DNA of 64,000 nucleotides from Candidatus Omnitrophota bacterium (GTDB lineage Bacteria; Omnitrophota; Gorgyraeia; 2-01-FULL-45-10): NCBI GenBank assembly GCA_043798375.1, contig JAZDOS010000006.1, positions 9,523 to 73,522 of the forward strand. Direction: 5' to 3'. The first letter of the stretch is position 1, and every line of letters starts with the position of its first letter. A program made the translations under genes and the position numbers. The notes under the pieces were generated by a model. It was not told the origin of the DNA, made no database searches, and saw only the letters and a list, made by a program, of their open reading frames with translations. Shown one piece after another: positions 8,992 through 34,700 of the stretch.

Positions 8992-9083
8992 CGCATATTT
9001 GACAGCTCTAAGGTTATAATAACGGCCCGCCGTTGGGGGGGATGGCCCCCTTACTCGTTACCGATTTATCTTTTGTTATTCCC

Positions 9084-11828: not shown

Positions 11829-11947
11829 CGCGTCTCCCAAGCAATAATTTTTTGATTTCTTCAAGAATGTGATGTGGCGATGTGGTGAGCTCAGGCGTCC
11901 TGAGCGAACCACTCGACACAGCACATTCGACTGGTGAAAACGAAAAA

Positions 11948-15208: not shown

Positions 15209-15224
15209 TTTTCGCCTCTCCCAC

Positions 15225-15276
15225 AAAAAAGGTGCCTGGCACCTCTTTTGAAACTTTTTTAATTAGTTCTAATCGG
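15225..15276. terminator. GC hairpin AGGTGCC-T-GGCACCT with flanking T-runs on both strands (bidirectional intrinsic-terminator-like); one of two copies of a 44-nt conserved element
   Basis: The hairpin is followed by TTTTTTG on the minus strand, about 50 nt downstream of the acsE-paralog stop. A near-identical copy is at 62337..62386. Confidence 0.5.
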
Positions 15277-15295
15277 TTCCGCTCGTAGGAAAAAA

Positions 15296-16096: not shown

Positions 16097-16105
16097 TCGA
16101 TTCCC

Positions 16106-17038: not shown

Positions 17039-17040
17039 CC

Positions 17041-17136
17041 CGTTAGACCTCCTATTTTCATTATCAAAATCATTTTTAAATCAAAAATATTAATATACCC
17101 TACCTGCAAGAAATACCATCTGTGAGGAGGTCTAAC
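17041..17136 (-). promoter_or_regulatory. 14-bp perfect inverted repeat (CCGTTAGACCTCCT / AGGAGGTCTAACGG) spanning the panE RBS; candidate RBS-sequestering long-range hairpin
   Basis: One arm is the SD AGGAGG immediately before the panE ATG; the complementary anti-SD arm lies 68 nt further upstream in the transcript. Confidence 0.4.
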
Positions 17137-17148
17137 GGGATTCATCGG

Positions 17149-18015: not shown

Positions 18016-18283
18016 ATCAGCACTCTCCTTTATGTTCTCCACAGATTTTTCGTCTTTTGGTGCAGGCGGAACTTTTGCGGTCCGCCTGGAGCGACTGTTA
18101 AAAATTTTGATACATTGGGGCAATTTAGACAGGACAATGAAACTGCGCAATAGATACAGCTATATTGGCAGGTTCATTGGCCATCAAAATTTTTCCACAG
18201 CAAATTGGCATGCCTAATGCCAATTTGCGGCAAGCGGAAGGCGACCGCAAAAGTGAACACCCATCGCCAAAGACGAAAAAATT

Positions 18284-19072
18284 TCACCTCTTTCTGTATG
18301 CGTCCAGAAACGAATCGCAGTAAATATTCTTATTCAAAATCAATTCCGCCGTGATCATCGCATCGACCAGATCCTTGTCGAGCGGGTCGAGTATCGCGGA
18401 CGTAAGGCCGTTCGCGATCGCCATCACCAGAAATGTGCGGTTTACTAATGAGCGGCGCTTCGTGCCCTGCGACACGTTCGACAGCCCTATCGTCGTATTC
18501 GGCGCCGGGTCCGAGAGGAGCCTGAATTCGCGGATAGCCTCAAGTATCTGCGACTGCTGTACCTGAGCGACATTGACCGGAAGCACTATCGGATCAAGAA
18601 AGATGTCTTCAGGTCCGATACCGAAATCGATCGCCTTGGCGACTATCGCCGCCGCAAGCTCCAGCCTCTTTTCTTTGTTATTCGGTACGCCTGACTTGTC
18701 CATCGCAAGAGCGATCACCTGCGCATTATATTTCTTCGCAAGCCCGAATATCGCTTCCATCTTCGCCTCATCGGCGTTTGTCGAATTGATTACCGCCCTC
18801 TTCTTCGCAAGCTTTAAACCTTCCTCGATAACATCAGGTTTTGTCGAATCGAGCGCGAGGCTGGCATCCGTGACTTTCTGTATCGACTCGACAAGCCATT
18901 TCATATCGTCTTTCGGATTTTTTGAATAAGGCCCTGTATTTACATCCAGGACTCTTGCGCCTGCCCTTACCTGGTCCTCGGCAAGATGCTGGATGACGTC
19001 CGCTTCCTTATTGGTAATAGCCCGGCCGACGTCCTTGAACATTCCGTTAATCAGCTCACCGATTATGATCAC
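18284..19072 (-). CDS. acsE: methyltetrahydrofolate:corrinoid/iron-sulfur protein methyltransferase AcsE
   Basis: MIIIGELINGMF...GLSNVSQGTKRRSLVNRTFLVMAIANGL...YCDSF closely parallels Moorella AcsE. Confidence 0.8.
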   Translation of the reverse strand: MIIIGELINGMFKDVGRAITNKEADVIQHLAEDQVRAGARVLDVNTGPYSKNPKDDMKWLVESIQKVTDASLALDSTKPDVIEEGLKLAKKRAVINSTNADEAKMEAIFGLAKKYNAQVIALAMDKSGVPNNKEKRLELAAAIVAKAIDFGIGPEDIFLDPIVLPVNVAQVQQSQILEAIREFRLLSDPAPNTTIGLSNVSQGTKRRSLVNRTFLVMAIANGLTSAILDPLDKDLVDAMITAELILNKNIYCDSFLDAYRKR

Positions 19073-19941
19073 GGCTTCGCTCCTTTCATCATTTCGTCGA
19101 TATACTTAACTATATCGCGGGCCGCTTCGGGATGCCTCATGACAAGAAGATCCGCGCCAGCCGCAAGCATCGATACGGACGTCGAAATCTCCCAGTTGAC
19201 CCCCTGGATCTCGCCGGCCTCTTTAGCTTCTTTCGTCTTCCACACTTCCTGGCCGATGAAGAGTATGAACGGCATCGCGAGCATCCTGTCCCCGATAAAC
19301 GCGGCGAGCCTGGCGCGCTCCATTATCGAATAGACGTATTCCATGCCGTATCCGAGAGATGTCGTCGTCGGGTGCATCACTATCCTATTCGGGTCAAACC
19401 CCATGTCGCTTATCAGTATATTCACCTGCTTCGCGATATTGATATCGATCGGCGATTCCGCTATTATCGAATGCCCGTCAGCCAGGCAGGTCGCAGCGAG
19501 GGTTTTATAATTATTCTGCGTCGCGATCCCGAACAAATAGTTCTCGCCCCTGAATGCCTGGCTCACCTTAGGCAAAACCTCATTGTCCTTTTCGGCGTCC
19601 CCGCATCCTGTGATAACGAGCGGCACCCCAATGCTTGCGGCTATCGACTTCAAACTTTTAACGGCATCATCCGCTGATTTATTGCCGTTATCCGGATGTA
19701 CGCTTGCGAGCCGTACGCATAAAAGAGCTGCGCCGCTATCGGCCAGATGTCCGGGCAAATCGGTGTCGAGGATCTCCAGCGCCACGACAGGCTTATTCGG
19801 CACCAGGCCTTCTTCGAACAGAAACGGCAGCGTAGTTTCGCCGCCTATTTTAACGGCGCCGGCGCCGCCTTTGCCGATCTCCACCGTATTTATCGCGCCT
19901 CCATACTTTTCCTTAATTAATTCTACCGGCATATTTCTCAC
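19069..19941 (-). CDS. acsD: corrinoid iron-sulfur protein small subunit (CODH/ACS delta, AcsD/CdhD)
   Basis: TIM-barrel delta-subunit pattern; gene context with acsC. Confidence 0.75.
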   Translation of the reverse strand: MRNMPVELIKEKYGGAINTVEIGKGGAGAVKIGGETTLPFLFEEGLVPNKPVVALEILDTDLPGHLADSGAALLCVRLASVHPDNGNKSADDAVKSLKSIAASIGVPLVITGCGDAEKDNEVLPKVSQAFRGENYLFGIATQNNYKTLAATCLADGHSIIAESPIDINIAKQVNILISDMGFDPNRIVMHPTTTSLGYGMEYVYSIMERARLAAFIGDRMLAMPFILFIGQEVWKTKEAKEAGEIQGVNWEISTSVSMLAAGADLLVMRHPEAARDIVKYIDEMMKGAKP

Positions 19942-20686
19942 CTTTAAGTTTCTCTACCACCTGGTCGATTTTCTCGTTAACCGTCTGATTCTTAAATTCA
20001 AATATGGATCTCGCCGCAATATTCCATTTGATGAGGTCCTCGCTATAAGGTATTTCACCGATAAGATCAAGGCCTGAATTCCTGATCTCGTCTTTCAACG
20101 ATGAGACAGGCCCCGTAACCTTGTTTATGATGAGGTACGCGGCGCCTATCCTGATCCCGAGCTCTACGGCAAGATCGTATATCTTTTTCGCCGCGCGCAC
20201 GCCGGTTACCGAATAGTCACTTACGAGGACGAGCTTATTCAGCGCCCCGACCGTCCTTCTCGATATATGCTCCATCCCGGCCGCATTATCTATCACGACG
20301 TAATCGTAGCTTGAGATGATCTTTTCAATAATACCGCGTAAAAGATTATTTACATAACAATAACAGCCGGGCCCTTCGGGGCGGCCCATCACAAGACAGT
20401 CGAAGTTCTTTTCCTCGCTTACCGATTCCTGGACACGCATCTCGATATAACGGTCTTTCGTCATACCGCCGGGAATCTTGTCCATATCCTTCGATATCTC
20501 TTCGCAAATTCCCACTATCGTCTTCGGGCTTTTTACGCCAAGTGAGTCCGCAAAGCACGAGTTCGGGTCGGCATCGATAGCTATTACAGAACCGGCTTTT
20601 TTATATATGAGGTGCGCGACTACGAAAGAAGCTAATGTCGTCTTCCCCGTGCCGCCCTTACCGTTAACCGCTATAATCGTACCGAT
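19913..20686 (-). CDS. cooC: CooC-type Ni-insertion ATPase (MinD/ParA family); Walker A is encoded upstream of the first ATG, and the start codon is non-canonical or unclear
   Basis: The in-frame upstream translation IGTIIAVNGKGGTGKTTLASF continues into the ORF-table product. No ATG/GTG/TTG lies between the upstream stop and the Walker A; the region overlaps the stop of the RACo gene. Confidence 0.6.
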   Translation of the reverse strand: MGTIIAVNGKGGTGKTTLASFVVAHLIYKKAGSVIAIDADPNSCFADSLGVKSPKTIVGICEEISKDMDKIPGGMTKDRYIEMRVQESVSEEKNFDCLVMGRPEGPGCYCYVNNLLRGIIEKIISSYDYVVIDNAAGMEHISRRTVGALNKLVLVSDYSVTGVRAAKKIYDLAVELGIRIGAAYLIINKVTGPVSSLKDEIRNSGLDLIGEIPYSEDLIKWNIAARSIFEFKNQTVNEKIDQVVEKLKGEKYAGRIN

Positions 20687-22509
20687 GGAAACCTCCCTAT
20701 GTCCGTATGCGGAAAAAATAAGGCCGCGATATACTCATCCATATAATTCGGCTCTACGCTGAGGTCAAGATACGTTATGTTCTTATGTATTTCAAACGCC
20801 CTTTTGAACGCCTCGTGCGAATTTAACGACATGCGCGAGCCCGCCAGCGACGAATTGCCGACAAATTGATAAACGCTTCTATCGGTATCCGGCAATAACC
20901 CGATAAAAACAGCGTTCTCTATATTAAGGTAATTGCCGAAACCGCCGGCAATGTATATCTTCTTAACCTCCGAGATACTCTTGCCGACCTTATTGGTGAG
21001 CGCGATTATTGCGCTGTAGATCGCGCCCTTCGAGCGCTTCAGGTTTTCGATATCGTCTTCATTAATCACTATATCCTTGCCGTTCTCCACCTCATCTTTT
21101 GAGGCTATGATGAATTCGGCGCCGGTGCCGGTCACCCGTATTCTGCCGGTCTTATTGTCGCGATTCAATTTTCCGTCTTTGCCGATAATCCCGGTTTTCA
21201 GCATCTGGCATAACAGGTCGATATATCCGGAGCCGCAGATCCCTCTTGGCTTGCCGCCGCCGATCGTATCAAGCGTTATCTTGAGGGATTTACCGATTCT
21301 CACCTTCTGGATCGCGCCCGCCGTCGCCTTCATGCCGCACGATAATCCGCTTCCTTCAAACGCGGGGCCGGCGCTTGCGGCCGTCGACATCATCCACTCG
21401 GAATTACCCAGCACTATCTCGCCGTTAGTCCCGACGTCGATCAAAAGCGAAAGCTCATCATTATCCGCGAGGCCGCATGCCAATACACCCGCTACGACAT
21501 CGCCGCCGACATACGTCGTCACTCCCGGCAAAAATGACGCCAGCCCTTTCGGATTTGCCTCCACGCCGATCTCCGACAGGCTTGTGGCCGGAAAACAGGC
21601 CGTTGTCGGGATGTACGGCGCCTTCCTTATATTCGCCGGGTCTATTTTCAGAAGGATGTGCATCATCGTCATGTTCCCGGCAAAGTTTACGCCGTTCACC
21701 TCGCCAACCTGCACATTCTGGGATACGCAAAGATCCTCGACGATCTCGTTGATGTTCTCGAGGACCGACTCGTTAAGCACCTTTAAACCCCTGGGCTCTG
21801 AGGCATAAATTATTCTTGTTATAATATCGGCGCCGTGCGCCGCCTGCTTATTGAAGGCGATTCTGGTGCCCAGTATCTTTTTTTTATTCAGGTCCACCAG
21901 CTGCCCCGTGACGGTCGTCGTTCCGATGTCGAATGCAAAAGCATAATTCGATAAAGAGGTGTTTCCCGGCTCAATAGCCAGTATCTCTACGGTGTCATCT
22001 TTATAACCGACGATTGCCGTTACTTTAAAATTGCTGTCACGAAGAACTTCGCCGAGATGTTTTACGTTGCCAAGTTTTGTCGACAGGCTCAAGCCCTCGA
22101 CATCTTTCGCCAATTTGTCCGTTACCCTCTCAAGATCGCTTGAGTTGTCATCCGGCGTCGGCTTCGAGAGCTCAAGGTATATCTTTCTTACGAGCGGTGA
22201 AAAACGGTATGCCTTCTCTCTTTCAAGCACCACGCCTTTTGTAAATTCTTCGGCTTCGTGGCTTAAAATTAAATGTTCGTGGGTGGCTCCTTTGGGAACG
22301 ATTACGTCCAGATCGCTTTCGACGATCGTCTCGCAGGCCAGGACTTCCCTGCGGTTGATGATTACTTTGCACTTGCCGCACAACCCCTCGCCGCCGCACG
22401 ACGCATTGAGGACTATCCCGCACTTTATGGCGGCCGTCAACATGTCCGTGCCGCCGGCAACGCGTATTATTTTATTATGCGGCGTGAATTTTACCGTATA
22501 TTCCTGCAT
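20671..22509 (-). CDS. acsV: reductive activator of CoFeSP (RACo/AcsV): N-terminal 2Fe-2S ferredoxin domain plus ASKHA ATPase
   Basis: N-terminal Cys cluster CGGEGLCGKCKV; about 610 aa with an ASKHA fold signature; context between acsC and cooC. Confidence 0.7.
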   Translation of the reverse strand: MQEYTVKFTPHNKIIRVAGGTDMLTAAIKCGIVLNASCGGEGLCGKCKVIINRREVLACETIVESDLDVIVPKGATHEHLILSHEAEEFTKGVVLEREKAYRFSPLVRKIYLELSKPTPDDNSSDLERVTDKLAKDVEGLSLSTKLGNVKHLGEVLRDSNFKVTAIVGYKDDTVEILAIEPGNTSLSNYAFAFDIGTTTVTGQLVDLNKKKILGTRIAFNKQAAHGADIITRIIYASEPRGLKVLNESVLENINEIVEDLCVSQNVQVGEVNGVNFAGNMTMMHILLKIDPANIRKAPYIPTTACFPATSLSEIGVEANPKGLASFLPGVTTYVGGDVVAGVLACGLADNDELSLLIDVGTNGEIVLGNSEWMMSTAASAGPAFEGSGLSCGMKATAGAIQKVRIGKSLKITLDTIGGGKPRGICGSGYIDLLCQMLKTGIIGKDGKLNRDNKTGRIRVTGTGAEFIIASKDEVENGKDIVINEDDIENLKRSKGAIYSAIIALTNKVGKSISEVKKIYIAGGFGNYLNIENAVFIGLLPDTDRSVYQFVGNSSLAGSRMSLNSHEAFKRAFEIHKNITYLDLSVEPNYMDEYIAALFFPHTDIGRFPSVRL

Positions 22510-22510
22510 C

Positions 22511-23845
22511 TTACTTCAGCCCTCTCAGGTAATTCGGTATCCCGGACGCTTCGCGCGGGCCTACGGCGACAGTCCAACCGGATACCTCTTCCAGCTTTCC
22601 GCTTAAGACAGAAACATATCCCGGTATGATGACTCTTTTATGCGAAACCATATCTTTTATTCCGCTCTTATCCAATGTGTCGGCTATCTTTTCCGCCGTA
22701 AACTTTTCGGCGGCCCAGGCGGTAAGGACCGACATGCCTTCCGCGTCACAGCAGATTATCCTGGACGGAACTTTGCTCGATTCGACCTCGCCGGCGACCG
22801 TGAAGTACGTTATCGAGAAATTGGTCGTGACGAGAACGGGTGATTGTTCTGTGACCTTGCCTATCTCGTAGATCTTCGGTTCAACCTGGACGGGCTTCTG
22901 GGGGTCCTGATATATATCCTGCCTCGCCACCAGGAGCGGAAACATAAACTCTTTCTTCGTATTCTTTACAATTACGAGCCCTGCATATTTAAGGACATAG
23001 GAAACCGCCTCGGCAAGCTCTTCGGACGGTTCGAGGGAATCCGTAAAAGCCATGAGGGGATATCCGACCGTCCTTATGTTTTTCCTGAGCGCGGCGCGCC
23101 TTGCGAAGGTAAAGACCTGAATGCGCGCGGCCGCGCTCTTTCCCTTAATATTTAAAACTAACTCCTCCACGCCTTTTTTCTTCGCCCTGTCGGTAAATTC
23201 CGCCGCCTCATCCAGATTCGAAGACGTTACGGCAAGAGGCACACCATGTTCTTTGGCCAAATCGATAAAATCATCTATTGCGGCAGGGTCTTCGCAGATA
23301 ATCAGGGGCCTTCTATCTTTGACTATCGCAAGGCCTGCCGATAGAGCCGCGGCATCGGACGAAGAGAGCGCGAGGTTTAACTTCGTCGCTGACGCGGCCT
23401 TGCGGACAGCGCCAAGGAATTTATCCGCCGTCTTCGATGAATTTTTGACACAGACCAGGTTTACCCCTATCGCCTGGCCGACTCTTTCGAAATGCAGGCC
23501 GTTGATTTCAGAAACGGTTTTCGCGATCTCCGCTTCAGTAAGCGTATCTTCGACCAGAATACCTATCGCCGCGGGGTGATAGAACTTCTGTTCGTGCCGG
23601 TACATCACCGTCTCATTGCCGATCTCGATCTTATTGTGATTTTTTCCGATCGTAACGAGCTTGATCGGAGGCTGGGCCGCGCTTTCGAGCGCTTCCTTCG
23701 CCTGTGCCGTCACGTGCGGGCACTTGTCGAGAGAGGTTTTTTTCTGGGCAAGCGCCATGGCAAACGCCAGGCACGTCGAAAATCCGCAGTCCTTGCAGTT
23801 CGTCTTAGGCAGAAGCTTATATATGTCCAATCCCGATAACGCCAT
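22511..23845 (-). CDS. acsC: corrinoid iron-sulfur protein large subunit (AcsC/CdhE gamma)
   Basis: N-terminal CKDCGFSTCLAFAMALA...C 4Fe-4S motif and B12-binding architecture. Confidence 0.8.
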   Translation of the reverse strand: MALSGLDIYKLLPKTNCKDCGFSTCLAFAMALAQKKTSLDKCPHVTAQAKEALESAAQPPIKLVTIGKNHNKIEIGNETVMYRHEQKFYHPAAIGILVEDTLTEAEIAKTVSEINGLHFERVGQAIGVNLVCVKNSSKTADKFLGAVRKAASATKLNLALSSSDAAALSAGLAIVKDRRPLIICEDPAAIDDFIDLAKEHGVPLAVTSSNLDEAAEFTDRAKKKGVEELVLNIKGKSAAARIQVFTFARRAALRKNIRTVGYPLMAFTDSLEPSEELAEAVSYVLKYAGLVIVKNTKKEFMFPLLVARQDIYQDPQKPVQVEPKIYEIGKVTEQSPVLVTTNFSITYFTVAGEVESSKVPSRIICCDAEGMSVLTAWAAEKFTAEKIADTLDKSGIKDMVSHKRVIIPGYVSVLSGKLEEVSGWTVAVGPREASGIPNYLRGLK

Positions 23846-24060
23846 TACTATTCATTCCTTTCCTTACCCCCATAAATGTCCGCCAGGCCAGGGGGCCTCG
23901 CCTAATTTTGATATCAAGGATGTTTAGTTTTAATTAATTTATTTGGTTTCGTCTTGCTCTTATGATAACAATTGCGCCAATATCTATAGGGGTAATTAAA
24001 CCTTATCAAAATTTTACGGCTCAACCCCCATGGCCTGTCGGCCATTTACAGTTACGCTTT

Positions 24061-24087
24061 CTAACCTGGCAATTCTAACCAGGTTAG
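24061..24087. promoter_or_regulatory. inverted repeat CTAACCTGG-N9-CCAGGTTAG, 216 nt upstream of acsC; related to the palindrome at 27270..27285
   Basis: Shared half-site CTAACC(T/A)GG in two Wood-Ljungdahl intercistronic regions. Confidence 0.4.
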
Positions 24088-24103
24088 TTTCATTGAAAAA
24101 TCG

Positions 24104-24160
24104 CGCGTCCTGAGCGAACCACTCGACACAGCACATTCGACTGCTGTAACGAAAAATTTT
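24104..24160. repeat. about 55-nt conserved intergenic element (gcgtcctgagcgaaccactcgacacagcacattcgactg...aacgaaaaatt), second copy at 11895..11945
   Basis: Near-identical sequence located 10-50 nt downstream of the stop codons of acsB and mnmA. Confidence 0.7.
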
Positions 24161-24168
24161 ACCTCCCC

Positions 24169-26373
24169 CTATACCAGCGGTTCCATCGAAAGCGCGGGGT
24201 GCTTGGCCTGCTCGAGATGGGCGACGAGCGCCGCGGCGTCGGTCGCGATCGTCTCGTCCGCGATCTTGTCAAAAAGATCGGGCATTCCAAGCTCTTTCGA
24301 GCGCTCTTTTAACTTATCCGCAAGCGCCTCTTTCAATTCCTTCGGCATCCAGACAACGCGTTTCAAGCCGCCCTCTGCCGATATAAATTTTTTACTGGTT
24401 ATATAGAGCCTCCCCACCCCAAGAAACCCGGGCGTCTGGCTGCCGCCGCCTACGGAACTGGCAAGCGTCGTAAATTTCATCCCTGCCGGCGTCTCACCCG
24501 GGTATTCCCTGTTCACGACCATCACGCCGTTCGCCTCCGGCACGATCGCCACGATACACTCGAAGCACCCGCATGACGTCATCGGCGCGTCCATTAACGA
24601 ATAGACGGTCATGCGTGAAATCTTCTGGTGGCTGGAATTATGGACGAACTGATTTATGCCCTCCCAGACGCCTTTTACGGAATCGATCGCGCTTCCCTTC
24701 TTTATAGGCTGATTCCCGCCGGTCGGCGTGATCTCGTGCGCCGCCCTTGCGTCAAGCCACGAATACGCGCCGCACAAGCCCAGCCTTTCCGGGCTCACCA
24801 CACAGACGTGGTCGGGCGCGAAACTCTGGCACAAAGTGCAGCTGTAGAACGTGTCGACCGACTCGTCCGTCATGCCCTGAATTCTCGCGTCCCTGGCGTC
24901 AAAAACCGACTTTGCTTCCGGCAATATCTTCAAAACATCCTTCTCGTCCGTATATATGGTCACCTGCACCTTGTCAACTATGGCGCCGTATTCGTCTTTG
25001 AGTTTTGCGACGAGAATATCGCCGAAATGGCGGATATTGAATCCCGCGCCCCGGGCGTCCTTCGAGATTCTTATCCAGTTCATATCGCGCTGGCCCATGT
25101 GGAATATGCCCATGGCATAATTTAAATATTTATGGATCTGGCGTTCCAGGATGGGCTCAAAATCGGCGCTCATCTTTCTTCCGGCAACTTCCGCGAGTAT
25201 ACCGAGGGGATAACTTCCCCCCTCGCTCATCTTGTCGATCTCCGGGCCTTTAACGGTTACCTTCCCGTCTTCAACCTCGTCCATCTTCTTCATCCTCAGG
25301 TATTCGAACGCGGCCGAATATTTTCCGCCGAATTGGACGAACATATTCTCTTTTCTTACGCGCTCACCTTCGAAAGCGGCTGAAAAGGGAACCGGCACCG
25401 GAACCGATGCGATCTTTACCTTAATACCGCGCGCCTCTATCGCCTTCCGGACTATCTTCTTATAGTCTTTTTCCTTTACCAGGCATTCTTCGTGAGCGCA
25501 GACGCCGGGAACCCTTACCTCCGGCAGGTCTAAGTCCGTTATTATCGGAACTCCCGCGGCAAGCGCTCCGGCGCCTGTCGCGGCCTTCACATCATCGACT
25601 CCGCCGAGGAGCATTACAAAAGCCGGCACTCTATTTTTGATGTAATCGACGCATGCGGCCGTATTGCCGGCTTTAATCCCTCCGAATGTCAGCGCGGCGC
25701 GGATGGCAAAATTAAGGACATAGACTATCGAGATCGTATCGCGGCCATAAGGAACAACGTAGGACTCCAAACCCATGTGGAGCCCGCCTTCTTTTAACTG
25801 ATCGATGATGCTTATGCCGTCGACACTGCCGCCGACCAGGGTAAGAATATTTCTCTTCTGGAGGTCTCTTACTATATCTACCGCGGTCTTGGCATCGGGA
25901 GCCTTGCCGAGAATTACGCCGATACCCGATATCCTTCCGTCGACAAGCTGTATGCCGAGCGCGCGCAATAGTGTGTCGGAGAAAAATCCCGGGCATCCTG
26001 CCTGAGGCTCCTCACCGTAAAGATATCGAAGCGCGGTTATCACCTCTTCCGAGAGTATCGCCGCAACACCGGCATTCAGGCTGTCTTTTAAGAAATTGGC
26101 CCATTTATCTTCAGCCGGAATGTCCTTTATTATAAGGGTCTTTGCGGTATCTAAAATCTTTTTTGCGTCGGCGAGCGTCTTCGTCTCGAGGCCTAAAAGC
26201 GCGTTTGCCAGCGGAAAATAGAACGCCGTGTCAGGGAACGCTATTTTTGAATCCGCGCCCTTTTCTTTAATAGCCCTGTCCATGTAACTATCGGCAACGC
26301 CTGCGACCGACCTTGCGCCGCTAACCATCAAACCCGCCACAACCTTCACCGTAACCTCCGATGTTTTTGTCAT
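24169..26373 (-). CDS. acsB: acetyl-CoA synthase catalytic subunit (CODH/ACS, AcsB/CdhC)
   Basis: 734 aa; A-cluster cysteines in TSCGCFECIVAIVPE. Confidence 0.85.
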   Translation of the reverse strand: MTKTSEVTVKVVAGLMVSGARSVAGVADSYMDRAIKEKGADSKIAFPDTAFYFPLANALLGLETKTLADAKKILDTAKTLIIKDIPAEDKWANFLKDSLNAGVAAILSEEVITALRYLYGEEPQAGCPGFFSDTLLRALGIQLVDGRISGIGVILGKAPDAKTAVDIVRDLQKRNILTLVGGSVDGISIIDQLKEGGLHMGLESYVVPYGRDTISIVYVLNFAIRAALTFGGIKAGNTAACVDYIKNRVPAFVMLLGGVDDVKAATGAGALAAGVPIITDLDLPEVRVPGVCAHEECLVKEKDYKKIVRKAIEARGIKVKIASVPVPVPFSAAFEGERVRKENMFVQFGGKYSAAFEYLRMKKMDEVEDGKVTVKGPEIDKMSEGGSYPLGILAEVAGRKMSADFEPILERQIHKYLNYAMGIFHMGQRDMNWIRISKDARGAGFNIRHFGDILVAKLKDEYGAIVDKVQVTIYTDEKDVLKILPEAKSVFDARDARIQGMTDESVDTFYSCTLCQSFAPDHVCVVSPERLGLCGAYSWLDARAAHEITPTGGNQPIKKGSAIDSVKGVWEGINQFVHNSSHQKISRMTVYSLMDAPMTSCGCFECIVAIVPEANGVMVVNREYPGETPAGMKFTTLASSVGGGSQTPGFLGVGRLYITSKKFISAEGGLKRVVWMPKELKEALADKLKERSKELGMPDLFDKIADETIATDAAALVAHLEQAKHPALSMEPLV

Positions 26374-26388
26374 TATATTCTCCGATTT

Positions 26389-27261
26389 TTACAATCCGGC
26401 CGCATCCAGGACCTGCGGCACCTTTTTATCCCATCCGATCGGCATTATGTGAATACCTTTACATAAAGGTTTCAATCCCTTAATAAGCCGCGCGGCTATC
26501 TCTATCGATTTAGCGCTCTTGTCTTTCGTCTCTTCCATCTCTTTAATAAGATTATCCGGCACGAATACGCCGGCGACGTTCTTATTCATGTATTTAGCCA
26601 TGCCGGCCGATTTTAACAAGACGATACCGGCCATGATCGTCGTATTCAGGTGTTTCGCGCCGTCCAAAAATCTTTTAAATAATTCGACGTCGTATACCGC
26701 CTGTGTCTGGAAAAATCGCGCTCCGGCGGATATTTTCTTCTCCATCTTGATAATTTCCGGTTCGAGCGGGTCCGCGCCGGGATTGACCACTGCGCCCATG
26801 CAGAATTTTGGCGCGCCGCGAAGCGCATTGCCTTTCATGTCTTTACCTTGTTCCAGGATTTTCGCGACTTCCAGAAGCTGGACGCTTCCAAGATCGAATA
26901 CGGGCTTCGCCTCCGGATGGTCTCCCAAACTCGGGTAATCACCCGTCAGTAAAAGCACGTTTTCTATCCCGAGGACGCTTGCGCTTAACAGGTCCGATTG
27001 CAGGGCAAGCCTGTTCCTGTCGCGGCAGGTCATCTGGAATATCGGCTCCATCCCCTCATCTTTCAAAAGATGGCATATCGCCATCGAGCCGATCCTCATG
27101 ACAGAGCTCTGCAGATCCGTCACGTTTATCGCGTCGACCCTTCCTTTTATCAAAAGCGCGTCTTCCAGGACCTCTTTGATATCCGTCCCTTTCGGCGGCC
27201 CGATCTCGCTCGTCACTACGAATTTACCCTGCTTTATCTTCTCGCAAAAAGTCATCTTCAA
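26389..27261 (-). CDS. metF: 5,10-methylenetetrahydrofolate reductase (acetogen MetF type)
   Basis: MetF TIM-barrel pattern; context between folD and acsB. Confidence 0.75.
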   Translation of the reverse strand: MKMTFCEKIKQGKFVVTSEIGPPKGTDIKEVLEDALLIKGRVDAINVTDLQSSVMRIGSMAICHLLKDEGMEPIFQMTCRDRNRLALQSDLLSASVLGIENVLLLTGDYPSLGDHPEAKPVFDLGSVQLLEVAKILEQGKDMKGNALRGAPKFCMGAVVNPGADPLEPEIIKMEKKISAGARFFQTQAVYDVELFKRFLDGAKHLNTTIMAGIVLLKSAGMAKYMNKNVAGVFVPDNLIKEMEETKDKSAKSIEIAARLIKGLKPLCKGIHIMPIGWDKKVPQVLDAAGL

Positions 27262-27269
27262 CCATCCCT

Positions 27270-27299
27270 TTCTAACCTGGTTAGATTTGGCAGGTTAGA
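27270..27299. promoter_or_regulatory. perfect palindrome TCTAACC-T-GGTTAGA plus an extra half-site, 9-38 nt upstream of the metF start
   Basis: The same CTAACCTGG half-site as at 24061. Confidence 0.4.
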
Positions 27300-28155
27300 G
27301 ACTCATCTTAAATAGTTCAACCGTATTTCTCATAAGAATCGTGGTCGTAAGCGGCCCGACGCCTCCCGGAACCGGTGTAATATACGAAGCCTTCTGCGAA
27401 GCAGCTTCAAATTCAACATCGCCGACAATTTTATCCCCTATCTTATTAATGCCTACATCTATCACGATAGCGCCTTCCTTGACCCAATCGCCTTTTACGA
27501 TGCCGGCCTTGCCGACCGCAACGACGAGTATCTCTGCCCGCTTCACATGGTCCGGCAGTACGCCGCGTTCGCCGGTCCCGATATGACAGACCGTCGTCGT
27601 AGCAAACTTGTTGAGAAGCATTAACGATAGCGGCTTGCCGACTATCTCCGAATGGCCTACAATAACCGCTTCTTTTCCGTATAAATTTATCTTCGTCGAT
27701 TCCAAAAGCTCCATCACAGCCATCGCGGTGCACGGGCCTATCTTATAATTTCCCAGCAGGATCCTGCCGAGATTCTCCGGATGCATCCCCTCGGCGTCTT
27801 TAGCGGGGGATATTCCTTTTACAAGCAACTTTCCGTCTATCCCTTTCGGCACGGGTAATTGTAGAATGACAGCGGTAACGGCCAAGTCATTATTCAATTC
27901 TTTTATCAGGGCTTCCGCCTGCGCCTGCGTAAAAGTTTCCGGGGCGACTTTCAATTCGTATTCGATCCCGAGCGACTCCGCCGCTTTCTTCTGCGCCTTG
28001 ACGTAAACCGCGGACGACGCGTTTTCGCCTATCTCGACCGCCAGAAGTTTCGGCGCTCGCTGCCCGCGCCTTACCTTTAATTCCTCAACTTCAGCCTTAA
28101 TCTTCGCCTTCAGGCCTTCTGCTATTACTTTACCTTCCAATAACTTTGCCGGCAT
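27295..28155 (-). CDS. folD: bifunctional methylene-THF dehydrogenase/methenyl-THF cyclohydrolase
   Basis: MPAKLLEGKVIAEGLKAKIK... FolD pattern. Confidence 0.85.
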   Translation of the reverse strand: MPAKLLEGKVIAEGLKAKIKAEVEELKVRRGQRAPKLLAVEIGENASSAVYVKAQKKAAESLGIEYELKVAPETFTQAQAEALIKELNNDLAVTAVILQLPVPKGIDGKLLVKGISPAKDAEGMHPENLGRILLGNYKIGPCTAMAVMELLESTKINLYGKEAVIVGHSEIVGKPLSLMLLNKFATTTVCHIGTGERGVLPDHVKRAEILVVAVGKAGIVKGDWVKEGAIVIDVGINKIGDKIVGDVEFEAASQKASYITPVPGGVGPLTTTILMRNTVELFKMSL

Positions 28156-28163
28156 ATCTTCTC

Positions 28164-28769
28164 CTATTTAATCGCATCCTCACACATCTCCAGTATCTCT
28201 TCCTTTAATTTAGGCATGGTTTTTTCGAGCGGCGCCAAAATCCCATGCACGCTTCCGACGTAGTCCATGTCTTTAATATATTTAAGATTGATATAAACAT
28301 TGTACTTGCCCGAAAAAAACGCCCCTTCGAGCAGTATCGCGGCTATGGCCGTATCGGTAACGAGGTTCTTGTTTCCGACGCGCGCAAGTTCCCTGCAGAT
28401 TCTAAGCATCCCATGCGCAATCTTGCATATTTCGAACGGAACATCGGCGGCTTCCTTGTATATCGCGTCCAGTTCCGGCGAGTTTTTCGGTAATTCCTTC
28501 ATAGCCTTCGACAGCTTCCCGTAAGCTTCGACATCCGCATCGACAAGGCGCTCGAGCTCAGCCTTTGCCTCGCTGGCCCTTACCAGAATATCCGCAAGCT
28601 TCTTCTCCTCCTGCTTATACTTAGGATTGCCCACCGTGTAGTTGGCGGCCATCGACATGAGGCCGACCCCTATAGCGGCGGCCAGGGCAGACGCGCTCCC
28701 GCCTCCCGGCGCCGGCGACTTTGCCGCCAGATCGTCAAGATACTCTCTTATCGGCTTATTAATGTACAT
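28164..28769 (-). CDS. fchA: methenyltetrahydrofolate cyclohydrolase (FchA, cyclodeaminase domain family)
   Basis: LAAKSPAPGGGSASALAAAIGVGLMSM motif. Confidence 0.75.
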   Translation of the reverse strand: MYINKPIREYLDDLAAKSPAPGGGSASALAAAIGVGLMSMAANYTVGNPKYKQEEKKLADILVRASEAKAELERLVDADVEAYGKLSKAMKELPKNSPELDAIYKEAADVPFEICKIAHGMLRICRELARVGNKNLVTDTAIAAILLEGAFFSGKYNVYINLKYIKDMDYVGSVHGILAPLEKTMPKLKEEILEMCEDAIK

Positions 28770-30453
28770 ACTTCATCCTTCCTTTCGCATCTATATCGAT
28801 CTTTTCGCCTGCGGGATATGCCGGCAGCCCCGGCATTGTGAGCATCTTGCCGCATAACGCGTAAAGAAAACCGGCGCCTATCGACGGCCTTACATCGCGG
28901 ATCGGAAGGATAAAATTCTTTGGCGCGCCTTTCAGGTTCGGATCGTGCGATAAAGACAGGGGCGTCTTCGCCATGCATATGGGAAGTTTTGAATACCCGA
29001 GCTTCTTAAAAAGGGCTATATTGTCTTCCGCGGCCTTTTCATAATGAACCGACTTCGCCCCGTAAACATCCCTGGCGATACGGTCAATCTTGTCCTTTAT
29101 CGCCATTTCGGACGGGTAGAGAAGGTTGAATCTGGACTTTGTCCTGCACGCCTCTAAACATGCGCGCGCAAGGCCGATCCCTCCTCGCGAGCCGAATCTG
29201 TAAACATCGCTTGTAACACAATCGAACGCGCCCGCCTCAAGCGCCCTCGCCCTGACATGAGCAACTTCTCTTTCCGTGTCGGTTGCAAATCTATTTATCG
29301 CGACTATGCACGGCAGGCCGTATAGCCTCGTGTTCTCTATCTGTTTTTCAAGGTTAGCGCATCCGTGATCCAGAGCATCGAGGTTCTCCCTTTCAAGATC
29401 TCTTGAAAGCGGCTTGCCTATAGCCGTCTTGTACATTCCCGAATGCACTTTAAGCGCTCTTATAGACGCCACGAGCACCACGGCCTGGGGCGCAAGGCCG
29501 CTATATCTACATTTTATATTCACGAATTTCTCCAGCCCGCAATCCGCGCCGAAGCCGGATTCTGTCACGACAAAATCAGAATGACCGAGCGCGATCCTGT
29601 CGGCAAGAACGGAGGAATTACCGTGCGTGATATTCGCGAACGGGCCGGTGTGTACAAAGCATGGCGTGTTTTCTATCGTCTGGACGAGGTTTGGTTTTAT
29701 CGCGTCCTTCAGAAGGAGCGCCATCGATCCCGCGACCTTCAGGTCTTCGGCCGTCACGGCCTTGCCGCTTTTTGAGACCGCGACGACGATCCTGGCGACC
29801 ATCTTCCTCATATCCGCGATCGATTCGGTCAGCGCCAGGATCGCCATTATCTCGCTTGCCGCGGTAATGCAGAATCCGGTATCCCGCTCGAATCCGGAAA
29901 CGCCCGCGCCGAGAGCGATCCGCACATTTCTCAAAGCGCGGTCGTTTACGTCTACGACGCGCCTCCAGTAAATCCTTTTCGGATCGATATTGAGCCTGTT
30001 ATCCCTGTAAAGGCTGTTATCGAGAAATGACGCGCAAAGATTGTGCGCCTGACTTACGGCATGAATGTCGCCGGTGAGATGCAGGTTGATATCTTCCATC
30101 GGCAGGACCTGGGAATACCCCCCGCCCAGGCCGCCGCCTTTTATTCCGAAGAACGGTCCGATGGACGGCTGCCTGATGGTCGCTATAGACTTCTTCCCGA
30201 GCCTGTTTAGCGCCATGGAAAGGCCGACAGTGGTAACGGTCTTCCCTTCGCCCAAAGGCGTCGGGGTAATGCCGGTCACGACTATGTAATTAGCTTTATA
30301 TTTTGCGGGCTTTTCTTTGACTAGGTCGAGAGATACTTTGGCCTTGTATCTTCCGTATAATTCGAGGTATTTCGATGGGATACCAAGGTATGACGCTATT
30401 CTGGTAATAGGTTTTAGTTTGGCTCGTTGGGCTATTTCGATGTCCGGTTTCAT
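28759..30453 (-). CDS. fhs: formate--tetrahydrofolate ligase
   Basis: PTPLGEGKTVTTVGL P-loop; 564 aa. Confidence 0.9.
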   Translation of the reverse strand: MKPDIEIAQRAKLKPITRIASYLGIPSKYLELYGRYKAKVSLDLVKEKPAKYKANYIVVTGITPTPLGEGKTVTTVGLSMALNRLGKKSIATIRQPSIGPFFGIKGGGLGGGYSQVLPMEDINLHLTGDIHAVSQAHNLCASFLDNSLYRDNRLNIDPKRIYWRRVVDVNDRALRNVRIALGAGVSGFERDTGFCITAASEIMAILALTESIADMRKMVARIVVAVSKSGKAVTAEDLKVAGSMALLLKDAIKPNLVQTIENTPCFVHTGPFANITHGNSSVLADRIALGHSDFVVTESGFGADCGLEKFVNIKCRYSGLAPQAVVLVASIRALKVHSGMYKTAIGKPLSRDLERENLDALDHGCANLEKQIENTRLYGLPCIVAINRFATDTEREVAHVRARALEAGAFDCVTSDVYRFGSRGGIGLARACLEACRTKSRFNLLYPSEMAIKDKIDRIARDVYGAKSVHYEKAAEDNIALFKKLGYSKLPICMAKTPLSLSHDPNLKGAPKNFILPIRDVRPSIGAGFLYALCGKMLTMPGLPAYPAGEKIDIDAKGRMKYVH

Positions 30454-30494: not shown

Positions 30495-30566
30495 ATTTTA
30501 ATATAAAGACGCCGGCGGGTCAATAAAATTTATCCCGCAAAATTTATCCCGCATGTTATCCCGCAA
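30495..30566 (-). promoter_or_regulatory. fhs-operon promoter (TTGACC-N17-TAAAAT) preceded by three direct repeats of TGCGGGATAA spaced 13-14 nt apart
   Basis: Read on the minus strand upstream of the fhs ATG at 30453. Confidence 0.45.
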
Positions 30567-30575
30567 AAACTTTTA

Positions 30576-30637
30576 CCGATACAACCTGCGAGGTTTGCCG
30601 GCAGCCGTCTACCGGTTAACCTCGCAGGTTGTATCGG
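30576..30637. repeat. REP-like palindromic element (20-bp perfect stem ccgatacaacctgcgaggtt / aacctcgcaggttgtatcgg, 22-nt loop); one arm encodes the C-terminus and stop of rnhB
   Basis: A near-identical copy lies at 63656..63717 and a shorter variant at 36124..36173. Confidence 0.8.
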
Positions 30638-31269
30638 TATTTCGCCAGCGATTTGACCGGCTGGAAGCTGAAACGGTGGATGGGTGACGGGCCATGCTCT
30701 TCCAGGGCCTTCATGTGGAGTCTTGTGCCGTAGCCCTTATGCCTGGCGAACCCGTATTGCGGATAAAGGCTGTCGTATTTTACCATGATGCGGTCTCGGG
30801 TGACCTTTGCGACGATCGATGCGGCCGCTATCGAGAGGCTCTTCGAGTCGCCGCCCACGATGCACTTGATCGGGCATTTCGTCGGAAGCTTCATGCGCCC
30901 GTCAACAAGAGCGTATTCGGGTTTGGCCTTGAGATTATCTACGGCTTCCTGCATGGCCCTGACGGTGGCCCGGTAGATATTGATCCGGTCTATCGTCTTC
31001 TCGTCGATGATGCCGACGCCGACAAATGCCTTATCGAGTATCTCGCGGTAGGCCCTCTCTCTTTTTTTGGGGGATAATCTTTTGGAATCGTCTATATCTT
31101 CTAAAAAATTGAAATCCTTGAGAATGACTGCGCCCGCGACGACAGGGCCGGCCAGCGGCCCGCGGCCTGCCTCATCGATTCCGGCGATCAGCTTGAAGCC
31201 CTGGCTATTCAGCCTCTTCTCTATCTTGAGGAGGATTTTTCGTCTCAGAGTGTTCGATCTTCTCTTCAA
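30616..31269 (-). CDS. rnhB: ribonuclease HII
   Basis: [24 protein letters not shown]. The ORF-table start is a TTG overlapping rplS by 65 nt, so the true start is uncertain. Confidence 0.8.
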
Positions 31270-31616: not shown

Positions 31617-32360
31617 TTATTTCTTTTCCTTAAGCAGATCCGGCCTTCTCGCTCTCGTCCTCTTAATCGCTTCTCCCCTTCTCCATTCTTCTATTTTCTT
31701 GTGGTTTCCGCTTAACAGCACTCCGGGGGCATTCATCCCCCGGTACTCCGCAGGACGTGTATATTGCGGATATTCCAGTAAGTCATCTTCAAACGATTCG
31801 CGCTTTATCGAATCGTTATGCCCCAGGACTCCCGGGATAAGCCGAACTACAGAATCTATTACAATAAGCGCCGGAATCTCGCCGCACGTCAATATATAAT
31901 CTCCTATCGATATCTCTTCGTCGGCCAGTTCTCTTATACGCTCGTCAACGCCTTCATAGTGCCCGCAGATGAGGACGAGCCGCCTCTCTTTAGCGAGCCT
32001 CTTCGCAATCTTCTGATCGTATTTCTTTCCCTGCGGCGTCAGTAATACTACCTTTGGCCTACGCTTCGGTGTTCGGTATTCGGTGTTCGGTGTTCGTTCT
32101 TTTTCGACAACCGACAACCGACAACCGACAACCGATTTCAGTTCTTTTAACGCCCGCCAGATCGGCTCGATCTTCATCACCATCCCCGCGCCGCCGCCGA
32201 ACGGCTTGTCATCCGCCGTCTTGTGGAAATCATCAGTCCAGTCACGGAGATTATGAACCTTTATCGTGACGAGCCCCTTATTCTGGGCGCGTTTCAAGAT
32301 CGATTCGCCGAGAATATTCTCGAACATCCCGGGAAAGAGCGTCAGTACGTCGATTTTCAT
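31617..32360 (-). CDS. trmD: tRNA (guanine37-N1)-methyltransferase TrmD, with an in-frame insertion of about 20 aa derived from a heptanucleotide-repeat hairpin element
   Basis: TrmD motifs (GGGAGMVM, LVLICGHYEGVDERI, SIGDYILTCGE). The extra segment VGCRLSVVEKERTPNTEYRTPKRRP is encoded by the repeat at 32063..32138. Confidence 0.85.
   Translation of the reverse strand: MKIDVLTLFPGMFENILGESILKRAQNKGLVTIKVHNLRDWTDDFHKTADDKPFGGGAGMVMKIEPIWRALKELKSVVGCRLSVVEKERTPNTEYRTPKRRPKVVLLTPQGKKYDQKIAKRLAKERRLVLICGHYEGVDERIRELADEEISIGDYILTCGEIPALIVIDSVVRLIPGVLGHNDSIKRESFEDDLLEYPQYTRPAEYRGMNAPGVLLSGNHKKIEEWRRGEAIKRTRARRPDLLKEKK
32063..32138. repeat. heptanucleotide tandem-repeat foldback element (arms CGGTGTT x4 / AACCGAC x4) inserted in frame in trmD
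   Basis: Left arm cggtgttcggtattcggtgttcggtgttcg, loop ttcttttt, right arm cgacaaccgacaaccgacaaccgacaaccg. Confidence 0.8.
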
Positions 32361-32366
32361 AGTTTT

Positions 32367-32440
32367 TCGGTTTGCGGTTTTCGGTTTGCGGTTTTTGGTC
32401 TTCGGACGACGATAACCGAGAACCTATAACCGATAACCGA
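32367..32440. repeat. heptanucleotide-repeat foldback element (CGGTTTG/CGGTTTT arms) filling the rpsP-trmD spacer
   Basis: cggtttgcggttttcggtttgcggttttt ... ccgagaacctataaccgataaccga forms an imperfect inverted repeat. Confidence 0.75.
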
Positions 32441-32448
32441 ATCTTCAA

Positions 32449-32697
32449 TTATGCCTTAATTCCCTGCTTCTTCAATAATGTCTTCACTATCGCTGACGGT
32501 ATCGCGCCGACTCCGATCCAGTATTCCGCGCGCTCCTTCTTCACAAAGACAGTCGCCGGATCCGTCTTCGGATCGTAGTAACCGAGGATCTCGATAGGCC
32601 TCGAATCCCGCGCCCTCCTCTTATCCACGACGATGATCCTGTGAACCGGTTTCTTCAACGCCCCCATCCTCTTTAGCCTTATGACTGCTGGCATCAT
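32449..32697 (-). CDS. rpsP: 30S ribosomal protein S16
   Basis: MPAVIRLKRMGALKKPVHRIIVVDKRRARDSRPIE. Confidence 0.9.
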   Translation of the reverse strand: MMPAVIRLKRMGALKKPVHRIIVVDKRRARDSRPIEILGYYDPKTDPATVFVKKERAEYWIGVGAIPSAIVKTLLKKQGIKA

Positions 32698-34038: not shown

Positions 34039-34700
34039 CGCGCAACCACAACCCTGTCGATTCCGTTAAAATCTTTCTTTATGCCTGTAACTTTAAATGC
34101 CCCGGCGCGGCCGATAATCTTCCTCACCTCGCCGGCCTGTCCGAAACCTATCTCGAACACTAAATATCCGCCGCTATTTAAGCATCGAGGCGCTTCCTGA
34201 ACGATCCTTCTGTAAAAACCTAAACCATCCTCCCCGCCGTCGAGCGCCAATCGCGGTTCCTTCAACACCTCTTTCTGGAGCGTTTCGAACTCAAATCCCG
34301 CGATATACGGCGGATTAGAGACAATAAGATCATATCTTCCTTTGATATTATTGAAAAGGTCGCTCGAAACAAATTCTATGTTATGTCCGGCGCCAAGTCT
34401 TGAACTGTTTTTCCTGGCCAACGCGAGCGCTTCTTCCGAAATATCGGAAGCGATTATTTTACAGTCGGGCAATGTTTTTGTCAATGCAATTGCGATATTT
34501 CCGGAACCTGTACACAAGTCCAGTATTGCGTATTGAGTACTGTGTATTGAGTAAAAAATTTCAGTTACGGTTTCAACCAATAACTCCGTCTCGGGCCGCG
34601 GAATAAAAACGCGCTCATCGACCAGAAAATCCATCCCGCAGAATTCTGCATGGCCGACTATGTACTGTATAGGCGTATATGGGGCTGTCGTATTCATCAT
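34026..34700 (-). CDS. prmC: release factor glutamine methyltransferase PrmC/HemK (short form)
   Basis: NPPYI motif and SAM-binding LDLCTGSGNIAIAL; adjacent to prfA. Confidence 0.75.
   Translation of the reverse strand: MMNTTAPYTPIQYIVGHAEFCGMDFLVDERVFIPRPETELLVETVTEIFYSIHSTQYAILDLCTGSGNIAIALTKTLPDCKIIASDISEEALALARKNSSRLGAGHNIEFVSSDLFNNIKGRYDLIVSNPPYIAGFEFETLQKEVLKEPRLALDGGEDGLGFYRRIVQEAPRCLNSGGYLVFEIGFGQAGEVRKIIGRAGAFKVTGIKKDFNGIDRVVVARWIN

Follow-up and report, generated by a model that had tools for sequence, protein, structure and literature searches.

The trmD gene located in a 64-kb stretch of a Candidatus Omnitrophota metagenome-assembled genome (hereafter the window, to which all window counts refer) contains two opposed arrays of four heptanucleotide units, which together form a hairpin inside the reading frame. 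We propose, with a probability of approximately 0.55, that this element is an inverted pair of resident four-unit heptamer arrays, which is kept repetitive by misalignment or conversion and filtered by what the protein tolerates. The element belongs to a widespread and poorly understood kind of bacterial repeat, arrays of about four heptamers positioned both between and within genes. Reports of heptamer arrays go back decades: the short tandemly repeated repetitive sequences (STRRs) date from 1990, the finding that heptamer repeats are over-represented from 2007, and the elements of Geobacter from 2009. New here is an inverted four-heptamer pair that is translated inside an essential enzyme, in Omnitrophota.

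Opposed heptamer arrays in the trmD reading frame

The trmD coding sequence (31617–32360, minus strand) is an intact open reading frame (ORF) of 247 residues that runs through the repeats and includes KSVVGCRLSVVEKERTPNTEYRTPKRRPK. The product matches the Pfam family tRNA_m1G_MT (PF01746) end to end over residues 23–240 (E = 5e-65), is similar to TrmD of S. aureus (3ky7, E = 9e-68), and is 100% identical to a Candidatus Omnitrophota protein from a metagenome-assembled genome at NCBI. The gene belongs to the minus-strand order prfA-prmC-murA-rpsP-trmD-rplS-rnhB, which lacks rimM and is common to relatives.

On the plus strand, positions 32067–32096 read CGGTGTT, CGGTATT, CGGTGTT, CGGTGTT, and CG, followed by an 8-nt loop and by four CGACAAC units and CGA at positions 32105–32135. 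The coding strand accordingly contains (CGGTTGT)4, then AAAAAGAA, then (GAACACC/GAATACC)4, and encodes SVVGCRLSVVEKERTPNTEYRTPKR. The 5′ arm of the mRNA hairpin, (CGGUUGU)4 plus CG (32105–32135, minus strand), was identified by Tandem Repeats Finder (TRF) as a period-7 repeat of 4.4 copies with 100% matches; it is paired in the minimum-free-energy fold and encodes approximately SVVGCRLSVV, residues ~76–85. The apical loop (AAAAAGAA on the mRNA; 32097–32104, minus strand), which was delimited by the sequence and the fold, is 8 nt long and codes for part of EKE. The 3′ arm, (GAACACC/GAAUACC)4 (32067–32096, minus strand), has 4.6 copies of period 7 with 92% matches, forms the other side of the fold, and encodes approximately RTPNTEYRTPK, residues ~88–98. 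The predicted free energy of the hairpin on the mRNA strand is −33.9 kcal/mol (z = −3.7), better than that of 200 of 200 shuffled sequences. The arms are not true complements, which corrects the initial annotation of this DNA; only a five-nucleotide core of each unit (CGGUU/AACCG) pairs, both here and in the hairpin upstream of trmD described below, and both hairpins are built from 5-bp helices separated by 2 × 2 internal loops.

The hairpin repeats in trmD are real and far beyond chance. The sequence CGGTNNNCGGTNNNCGGT occurs 18 times in the window with at most one mismatch, against 0.21 expected, and the window contains seven period-7 arrays, against 0.05 in codon-block shuffles. No tandem arrays with periods of 4–6 or 8–12 were found in the window, and period 7 is the only one enriched, likewise in other loci.

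The alignment of the protein to solved TrmD structures stops at residue 75 and restarts at residue 101. S. aureus TrmD has three residues in this connection, and the extra segment therefore amounts to about 22–25 residues. As a protein feature, the extended loop spans residues 76–100 (32061–32135, minus strand), is predicted to be disordered, and is positioned between a helix (residues 64–73) and a strand (residues 103–113). In an AlphaFold2 model calculated with 56 orthologues, residues 74–102 are coil, with a mean predicted local distance difference test (pLDDT) score of 47 for residues 81–90 and 50 for residues 91–100. The model thus presents the insert as a putatively disordered, peripheral surface loop. 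The intact frame shows that the arrays would be read through by the ribosome, which would add about 25 disordered residues and leave the catalytic core untouched. These results bear out the initial annotation, which had described the element as an opposed four-heptamer hairpin translated in frame (with an undisturbed ORF and a full-length Pfam match), had expected alignments to confirm the extra segment and modelling to place it in a surface loop, and had proposed that the catalytic motifs are spared.

Hairpin in the rpsP–trmD spacer

A sister hairpin is located between rpsP and trmD (32366–32441, minus strand), where the initial annotation had correctly noticed a related copy. Based on sequence, TRF, and folding, its mRNA consists of (CGGUUAU-type)4, a loop, and (AAAACCG/CAAACCG)4; the plus strand (32364–32441) reads (CGGTTTK)4 TGGTCTT CGG, a loop, and four ATAACCG-type units. 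The hairpin takes up nearly the whole 88-nt spacer (32361–32448), and its predicted free energy on the mRNA strand is −28.8 kcal/mol (z = −4.6), better than that of 200 of 200 shuffled sequences. The upstream gene, rpsP (32449–32697, minus strand), is an ORF matching Pfam Ribosomal_S16, and its stop codon is 8 nt before the hairpin. The 3′ arm stops 5 nt ahead of the trmD AUG, and the stem base brings the stop codon of rpsP and the start codon of trmD together. The trmD start is not preceded by a Shine–Dalgarno (SD) motif in the spacer, while rplS has AAGGAGAGG. Two relatives without the hairpin have spacers of 5 nt (locus L200) and 23 nt (L199), and a third (L201) also has a hairpin between the two genes. 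No Rfam family and no terminator-like site were detected at either of the two hairpins of the trmD region.

Related arrays in tgt, queA, and prmC

The arrays of the (CGGTTNN)4CG family comprise seven arms at five places (four loci) of the window. They lie within trmD, within tgt, twice within queA, and between genes in the rpsP–trmD spacer. The five aligned CGGT arrays all have exactly four units plus CG, in register, and six of the nine arrays in the window are coding. The only genes that contain arrays, from approximately 58 in the window, are trmD, tgt, queA, and prmC; the tRNA-modification gene mnmA contains none. The initial annotation, which recognized the two hairpins, overlooked the further arrays in tgt, queA (two), and prmC.

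The tgt array is a single in-frame arm (61774–61804, minus strand; TRF and ORF) with the plus-strand sequence (CGGTTTT CGGTTTG)2 CGG. It has a 14-nt super-unit and 24 identical nucleotides in common with the spacer arm, and its alignment to Z. mobilis Tgt pairs it with SRKEQAEN and leaves one additional residue. Site 1 of queA (63060–63085, minus strand), in the opposite orientation and in frame, consists of CGGTTGT, CGGTTAT, CGGTGTT, and CGGTTGG, encodes RLSVIGVRL, and aligns without gaps to EKLKKKGVQFA of T. maritima QueA, so that the length is unchanged. Site 2 of queA (62820–62850, minus strand) is a single in-frame arm that encodes ENRKPQTANR, adds seven residues, and is hypervariable in orthologues. 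The two queA arms are separated by 210 nt of conserved coding sequence. The prmC array (34522–34553, minus strand) is composed of a different heptamer, (CAATACN)4.6, and encodes YSIHSTQYAIL in frame, two residues more than in a solved homologue. In tgt, queA site 1, and prmC, the arrays thus overlie native codons at approximately equal length, which argues against a discrete self-inserting element.

A conserved long-range stem joining the two opposed queA arrays was considered and rejected: it holds in the window and in locus L202, partly in L204, and fails in L203. The codon content of the arrays was also considered as a means of autoregulation and rejected. The residues N, D, H, and Y, decoded by queuosine (Q)-tRNA, make up 15.5% of the QueA inserts and are not enriched relative to our estimate for an average protein, and the proline content of the TrmD and QueA inserts is equal.

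Conserved sites and changing contents in orthologues

The 120 sequences closest to TrmD are 65–100% identical to it, and the named ones are from Omnitrophota. The loop could be extracted from 114 of them and is 8–47 residues long. Residues seven positions apart in the loop are identical in 15% of cases, and a spacing of eight is raised less, against a background of 5–8%; this excess marks translated repeats of 7 nt and 8 nt. At the DNA level, a CGGTT-type hairpin is strong in L121 and partly decayed in L199, and the loop of L201 contains an octamer hairpin, (CCGGTTTG)4/(GGGAAACC)3. The GC-rich hairpin in the closest orthologue, L200, does not exceed shuffled sequences (z = −0.5). The loop of L122 contains a tandem duplication of about 33 nt with a CCTCCCC...GGGGG palindrome, and the TrmD loop thus also takes up repeats other than heptamers.

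The sites in the other genes behave similarly. Site 2 of QueA is very variable in length and sequence among 120 orthologues, and one example is NPEPRTPNP, encoded by (AACCCCG)n. Site 1 could be extracted from 112 sequences and has 11 residues in 111 of them; its positions 3 and 10 agree in 50 sequences (19.5 expected) and positions 2 and 9 in 76 (40 expected). The DNA of queA site 1 in L203 contains three identical CGGTTAG units. The Tgt site is occupied by (ACGCTGT)4 in L202 and by a 14-nt repeat in L203, and PrmC of L201 has an array at the same site and of the same heptamer family as in the window. In other Omnitrophota, the intergenic spacers that precede queH, tgt, and murA are also taken up by heptamer arrays or hairpins (L202, 7049–7119 and 10213–10249; L201, 1080–1117).

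Comparison of these sequences shows array positions that appear to be long-lived in each gene family, with contents that turn over in concert, and the loop site in TrmD is apparently old. The initial annotation had named the same segment in close orthologues, encoded by unrelated DNA, as a sign of an ordinary lineage-specific loop. The outcome is mixed: the segment is not shared, and many orthologues hold different repeat arrays at the site. A metagenome scan for close trmD orthologues returned mostly relatives of 50–63% identity, and a near-isogenic empty site was not found among them.

We further analysed 80 metagenomic TrmD loci with a total of 515 kb, which contain 25 period-7 arrays. Nineteen of these are in trmD, which represents 10.7% of the sequence (binomial P ~3e-14); this enrichment may be inflated because the loci were picked by similarity to an array-carrying query. 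Most of the trmD arrays are at nucleotides 188–283, the same TrmD loop, and are built from many different heptamers.

One lineage, which comes largely from soil metagenomes and has its genes arranged as ffh-rpsP-khpA-trmD, possesses a TrmD that shares no more than ~59% identity with any member of the Omnitrophota set. From a sample of 120 TrmD relatives of 85–100% identity, the loop could be extracted in 110, and in 103 of these it is 13 residues long, corresponding to 4.3 units. The main alleles are KSKIENRKSK, from (AAATCGA)n, KSQIANRKSQ, from (AAATCGC)n, and KSKIKNQKSK, from (AAATCAA)n, and partly converted intermediates occur as well. The DNA of L156, L157, L205, and L206 bears out these heptamer readings. 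Since the alleles have the same length, one base of the heptamer has changed in all the units together. In the khpA–trmD spacer, directly upstream of the trmD start, the soil lineage has also retained a (GACGTTS)4-5 array (within the 60 nt ahead of trmD in L156, L184, L170, L135, L141, L148, L205, and L206). In L153 and L141, the loop is encoded by (CGAACGT)n and (CAACGCT)n, which are complementary to the (GACGTTS) type of the leader.

Heptamer arrays in other phyla

An exact scan for (CGGTTTK)3CGG, with one genome per species, identified at least 118 loci. The matches listed come from Myxococcota, Desulfobacterota, Planctomycetota, Acidobacteriota, Bacteroidota, Verrucomicrobiota, Proteobacteria, and others, and the modal size of the arrays among them is four units (56 of 119 arrays). 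Many of the listed arrays are located just upstream of start codons, for example of dnaJ in L046. Others are in frame in linkers or loops, in ValRS, a linker of NadE, a linker of a UvrD-like helicase, a GT9 heptosyltransferase, and a linker of an M48-TPR protease, always in the hydrophilic ENRKPKT reading. This uniform reading is direct evidence of translation and of filtering at the level of the protein. In the ValRS of L102, from another phylum, a single insertion contains two different adjacent peptides that are encoded by arrays, SQISNLKSQID and SENRKPKTENT. An inverted partner was rejected as a general feature of the arrays; a partner of three ACCG units is present within 150 nt of only 5 of the 119 arrays among the matches listed.

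Comparison with known repeats

The four-heptamer elements of Geobacter are the closest precedent, followed by the cyanobacterial STRRs. The genome of Geobacter metallireducens contains 49 elements, each composed of four GGGACCG repeats; they are both intragenic and intergenic, and frequently two or three of them are neighbours (Aklujkar et al. 2009, PMC2700814). One is in the ddl–ftsQ linker and others are in cobS, cbiD, cobQ, lpdA, and sucB; the intragenic sites include an interdomain linker, a gene may have several copies, and the elements are putatively regulatory, of unknown function (PMC2700814). That report describes neither inverted hairpin pairs translated in an essential gene, nor conservation of sites among orthologues, nor concerted change at fixed length (PMC2700814). 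The arrays of the window resemble the Geobacter Gmet_H4xx elements in having four heptamers, several copies (counted in the window only), and both intergenic and intragenic positions. They differ in sequence (CGGTTNN versus GGGACCG) and in phylum, and represent the same kind of repeat and a different sequence family.

Heptameric STRRs of cyanobacteria were reportedly described by Mazel and colleagues in 1990. The likeness to them, which the initial annotation had pointed out, is apt, since in both cases tandem heptamers are dispersed in the genome and sometimes form inverted pairs. The Omnitrophota arrays differ in host and heptamers, have about four units, and are mostly in frame in housekeeping genes, whereas STRRs and the heptamer arrays of Xanthomonas and Nostoc are mainly intergenic, often longer, and G-rich, which makes them candidates for G-quadruplexes. 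Rickettsia palindromic elements (RPEs) are said to be 100–150 bp long, with a consensus conserved between copies, and to be inserted in frame in essential ORFs as surface segments, as reported by Ogata and colleagues in 2000. The trmD element is likewise palindromic DNA that is in frame in an ORF and encodes a tolerated surface segment. Unlike RPEs, the hairpins of 70 and 76 nt have no shared consensus, their arms are tandem heptamers, and related arrays occur as single arms or as an overlay of codons.

The arrays in Xanthomonas and Nostoc, GGGAATC and GGGGAYT, sometimes form convergent inverted pairs; their positions are conserved, but their length and sequence differ from one close relative to another (Rehm et al. 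2015, PMC4692102). According to the account given there, an over-representation of heptamer simple repeats in bacteria was found in 2007, and polymerase slippage was proposed (PMC4692102). [quoted passage not shown] In common with Correia elements and MITEs, the hairpins are short foldbacks, with copies between operon genes where the mRNA can be affected. The hairpin flanks, GAAAT/CGGTT...CCGAAG/CGTAGG and GAAGATT/CGGTT...CCGAAAAAC/TATG, contain no direct repeat or TA duplication, and the window contains no transposase with heptamer-like ends. The poly-psi variable number tandem repeat of NeuO in E. coli K1, (AAGACTC)n, has 3–53 units and acts as a slippage switch, which is on only if the number of units is divisible by three (PMC13001214). 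It is similar to the trmD arrays in being a coding heptanucleotide repeat that specifies a peptide with a 7-residue period, three units corresponding to seven codons. In contrast to NeuO, the arrays studied here are fixed at about 4.3 units with flanks that keep the frame, and no variation in copy number was seen (103 of 110 sequences of the soil clade have the same loop). They are also unlike the repetitive extragenic palindromes and bacterial interspersed mosaic elements that occur with REP-associated tyrosine transposases (RAYTs), since they are largely intragenic tandem heptamers rather than extragenic imperfect palindromes of 20–40 nt. NCBIfam scans of 40 of the ~58 window proteins gave no match to a Y1-transposase (RAYT).

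Origin and possible function of the arrays

Based on the fixed length, concerted change, and conserved positions of the arrays, a mechanism of their maintenance can be suggested. The arrays probably did not move as a unit by transposition. A variant heptamer may be copied to neighbouring units by a transient misalignment of one unit (7 nt) during DNA synthesis, a dislocation-type templated substitution, or by short-patch conversion among units and among loci, both of which would leave the length unchanged. Selection on the protein would then retain arrays that are free of stop codons, are a multiple of three in length, and lie in loops, linkers, or segments whose residues fit. The segmented mRNA hairpin of −34 kcal/mol inside the trmD ORF would be a by-product of the inverted pair. 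The spacer hairpin, positioned at an AUG without an SD motif, probably lowers or conditions the translation of trmD relative to rpsP and rplS, and at the same time keeps the stop codon of rpsP close to the start codon of trmD, where the stem begins.

Several observations weigh against this explanation. The misalignment or conversion step is one that we infer. Slippage by one unit shifts the frame, and simple microsatellite dynamics therefore cannot grow or homogenize an array in an essential gene. Neutral slippage does not predict the near-constant number of four units, which is also that of the Geobacter elements. The periodicity is kept while the encoded peptide changes radically, which hints at a specific mechanism or at a function at the level of the nucleic acid. 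A purely passive model predicts neither the concentration of arrays in trmD among the metagenomic loci nor their confinement to trmD, tgt, queA, and prmC in the window.

Alternatively, the arrays of the leader and the ORF could be cis-regulatory signals in RNA or DNA that set the level of TrmD, with the translated loop as a tolerated side effect, which we regard as rather unlikely. Such signals could be sites for a binding protein, an occlusion of the start codon, alternative pairings between leader and loop, or a G-quadruplex of two tetrads made from the GG runs. In favour of this are the conservation of periodicity and four-unit size without that of the peptide, the end of the spacer hairpin 5 nt before an AUG that lacks the SD motif present at rplS, and the short spacers of 5 and 23 nt in close relatives without the hairpin. 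The soil lineage combines a leader array with a loop array, and in L153 and L141 the two are complementary; trmD is much richer in arrays than the sequence on either side of it, many of the arrays in other phyla are just upstream of start codons (dnaJ in L046), and the Geobacter elements were annotated as putative global regulatory elements (PMC2700814). However, the heptamers differ among genomes and among the sites of one genome and provide no common recognition motif, the complementarity of queA sites 1 and 2 is inconsistent (L203), and neither an Rfam family nor a terminator was found at the hairpins. The same motif occurs in linkers of unrelated enzymes, and the enrichment in trmD is possibly inflated by the choice of loci. 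A more specific version, in which the leader and loop arrays form a functional nucleic-acid device that couples TrmD synthesis to the status of 1-methylguanosine 37 (m1G37) and the reading frame, or is bound by a dedicated factor, and that is conserved in trmD, tgt, queA, and prmC of several uncultured lineages, seems improbable to us. In such a device, a one-unit slip, or a +1 shift of the ribosome within an array free of stop codons, could be read or reversed in a manner peculiar to a period of seven, and the repeats would be maintained for this role instead of being merely tolerated.

We assign a similarly low probability to the mobile palindromic element suggested by the initial annotation, a non-autonomous foldback of the MITE, RPE, or Correia type with heptamers as terminal inverted repeats, which would have transposed into trmD and the spacer and survived because its length is a multiple of three. 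The two hairpins are of similar size (~70 and ~76 nt) and 230 nt apart, the 14-nt super-unit and the 24-nt identity suggest copying between loci, and some arrays of other phyla, though a minority, are accompanied by an inverted partner nearby. Against transposition, neither hairpin has flanking direct repeats and no transposase was found in the window. The arms, with their variable dinucleotides, and the loops differ between copies, which have a mean column identity of 53% and only the register of CGGT every 7 nt in place of a full-length consensus, and the units are homogeneous within an arm, yet the two arms are different heptamer variants. Single arms occur in tgt and in queA, and the two in queA lie on either side of a conserved coding stretch of 210 nt; in several cases an array takes the place of native codons while the length stays the same, and orthologues hold other repeats at the same TrmD loop. 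Very improbable, in our view, is a frameshift switch or sensor, in which arrays accumulate in, or reversibly switch, genes of reading-frame maintenance and termination (trmD, tgt, queA, and prmC), the loss of which would itself suppress frameshift alleles. Seven bases are two codons plus one, and the gain or loss of a unit thus shifts the frame of the gene; a stop-free array would offer the ribosome a long stretch in which a +1 shift brings back the frame, the periodic peptide being unchanged. In the window, arrays are present in four of five genes that modify the translation machinery and in none of ~53 others (hypergeometric P ~1e-5, for a class defined post hoc), mutations in trmD are a classic source of +1 frameshift suppression (PMC3617221), CGG and CCG, codons that depend on TrmD, are present in the trmD arrays, and NeuO demonstrates that a coding heptanucleotide repeat can be an on/off switch (PMC13001214). 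Nevertheless, every trmD examined is in frame, and alleles that had gained or lost a unit were not seen, although retrieval of full-length proteins would miss them. Furthermore, mnmA, also a suppressor locus, has no array, tgt and queA are not among the suppressor loci of the screen (PMC3617221), neither proline nor the residues read by Q-modified tRNAs are enriched in the QueA and TrmD inserts, the same arrays occur elsewhere in ValRS, NadE, a UvrD-like protein, and a GT9 enzyme, and four units are short for frequent slippage.

Such arrays can reside in essential conserved enzymes, at sites that are stable over deep divergence, while the length is constant and all the units change in concert. 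Linkers of proteins from several phyla contain the same motif, and one TrmD loop is a recurrent host. The arrays provide a concrete system in which to consider 7-nt homogenization without frameshift, the origin of loop and linker sequences, and the tuning of a gene that guards the reading frame. If resident arrays filtered by protein tolerance are the correct explanation, they are mainly a caution to those who annotate or align low-complexity inserts of metagenome-assembled genomes.

Other repeats and genes of the window

The queA–tgt spacer (62328–62611, 284 nt) contains a foldback of ~215 nt with arms of ~75 nt and a predicted free energy of −104 kcal/mol (z = −6.7). It has one copy in the window and no Rfam match, and the orthologous spacers are 21 nt (L203) and 77 nt (L202) long. 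Its appearance is that of a genuine foldback insertion or MITE-like element, or else of a structured RNA. Between fhs and rnhB (30525–30640), three direct repeats of a 14-nt unit (AAAATTTATCCCGC) are followed by a long hairpin with perfect arms of 23 bp (ATACCGATACAACCTGCGAGGTT...AACCTCGCAGGTTGTATCGGTAT).

A 21-nt repeat at 10571–10617 was considered as a relative of the arrays and rejected as part of an ordinary coiled-coil heptad protein. This small protein (10495–10857) contains 21-nt (7-residue) repeats, and its RLSVVE is shared with the TrmD insert by coincidence, the DNA being unrelated.

The region 2300–10300 contains short ORFs without family matches, a weak IS630-type helix-turn-helix (HTH) protein (4925–5542), a XerC/XerD-like tyrosine recombinase (9084–10046), and a tRNA gene (10210–10283), and may be an integrated element beside the tRNA gene. 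A link between the arrays and a transposase was rejected: the only IS630-like match in the window is this weak HTH, its flanks and ends are unrelated to the arrays, and no other transposase was found in the window. A Wood–Ljungdahl-type cluster occupies positions 11037–30453 and encodes acetyl-CoA synthase subunits, a corrinoid methyltransferase, AcsV, FolD, FchA, and Fhs, with larE and mnmA on its flanks.

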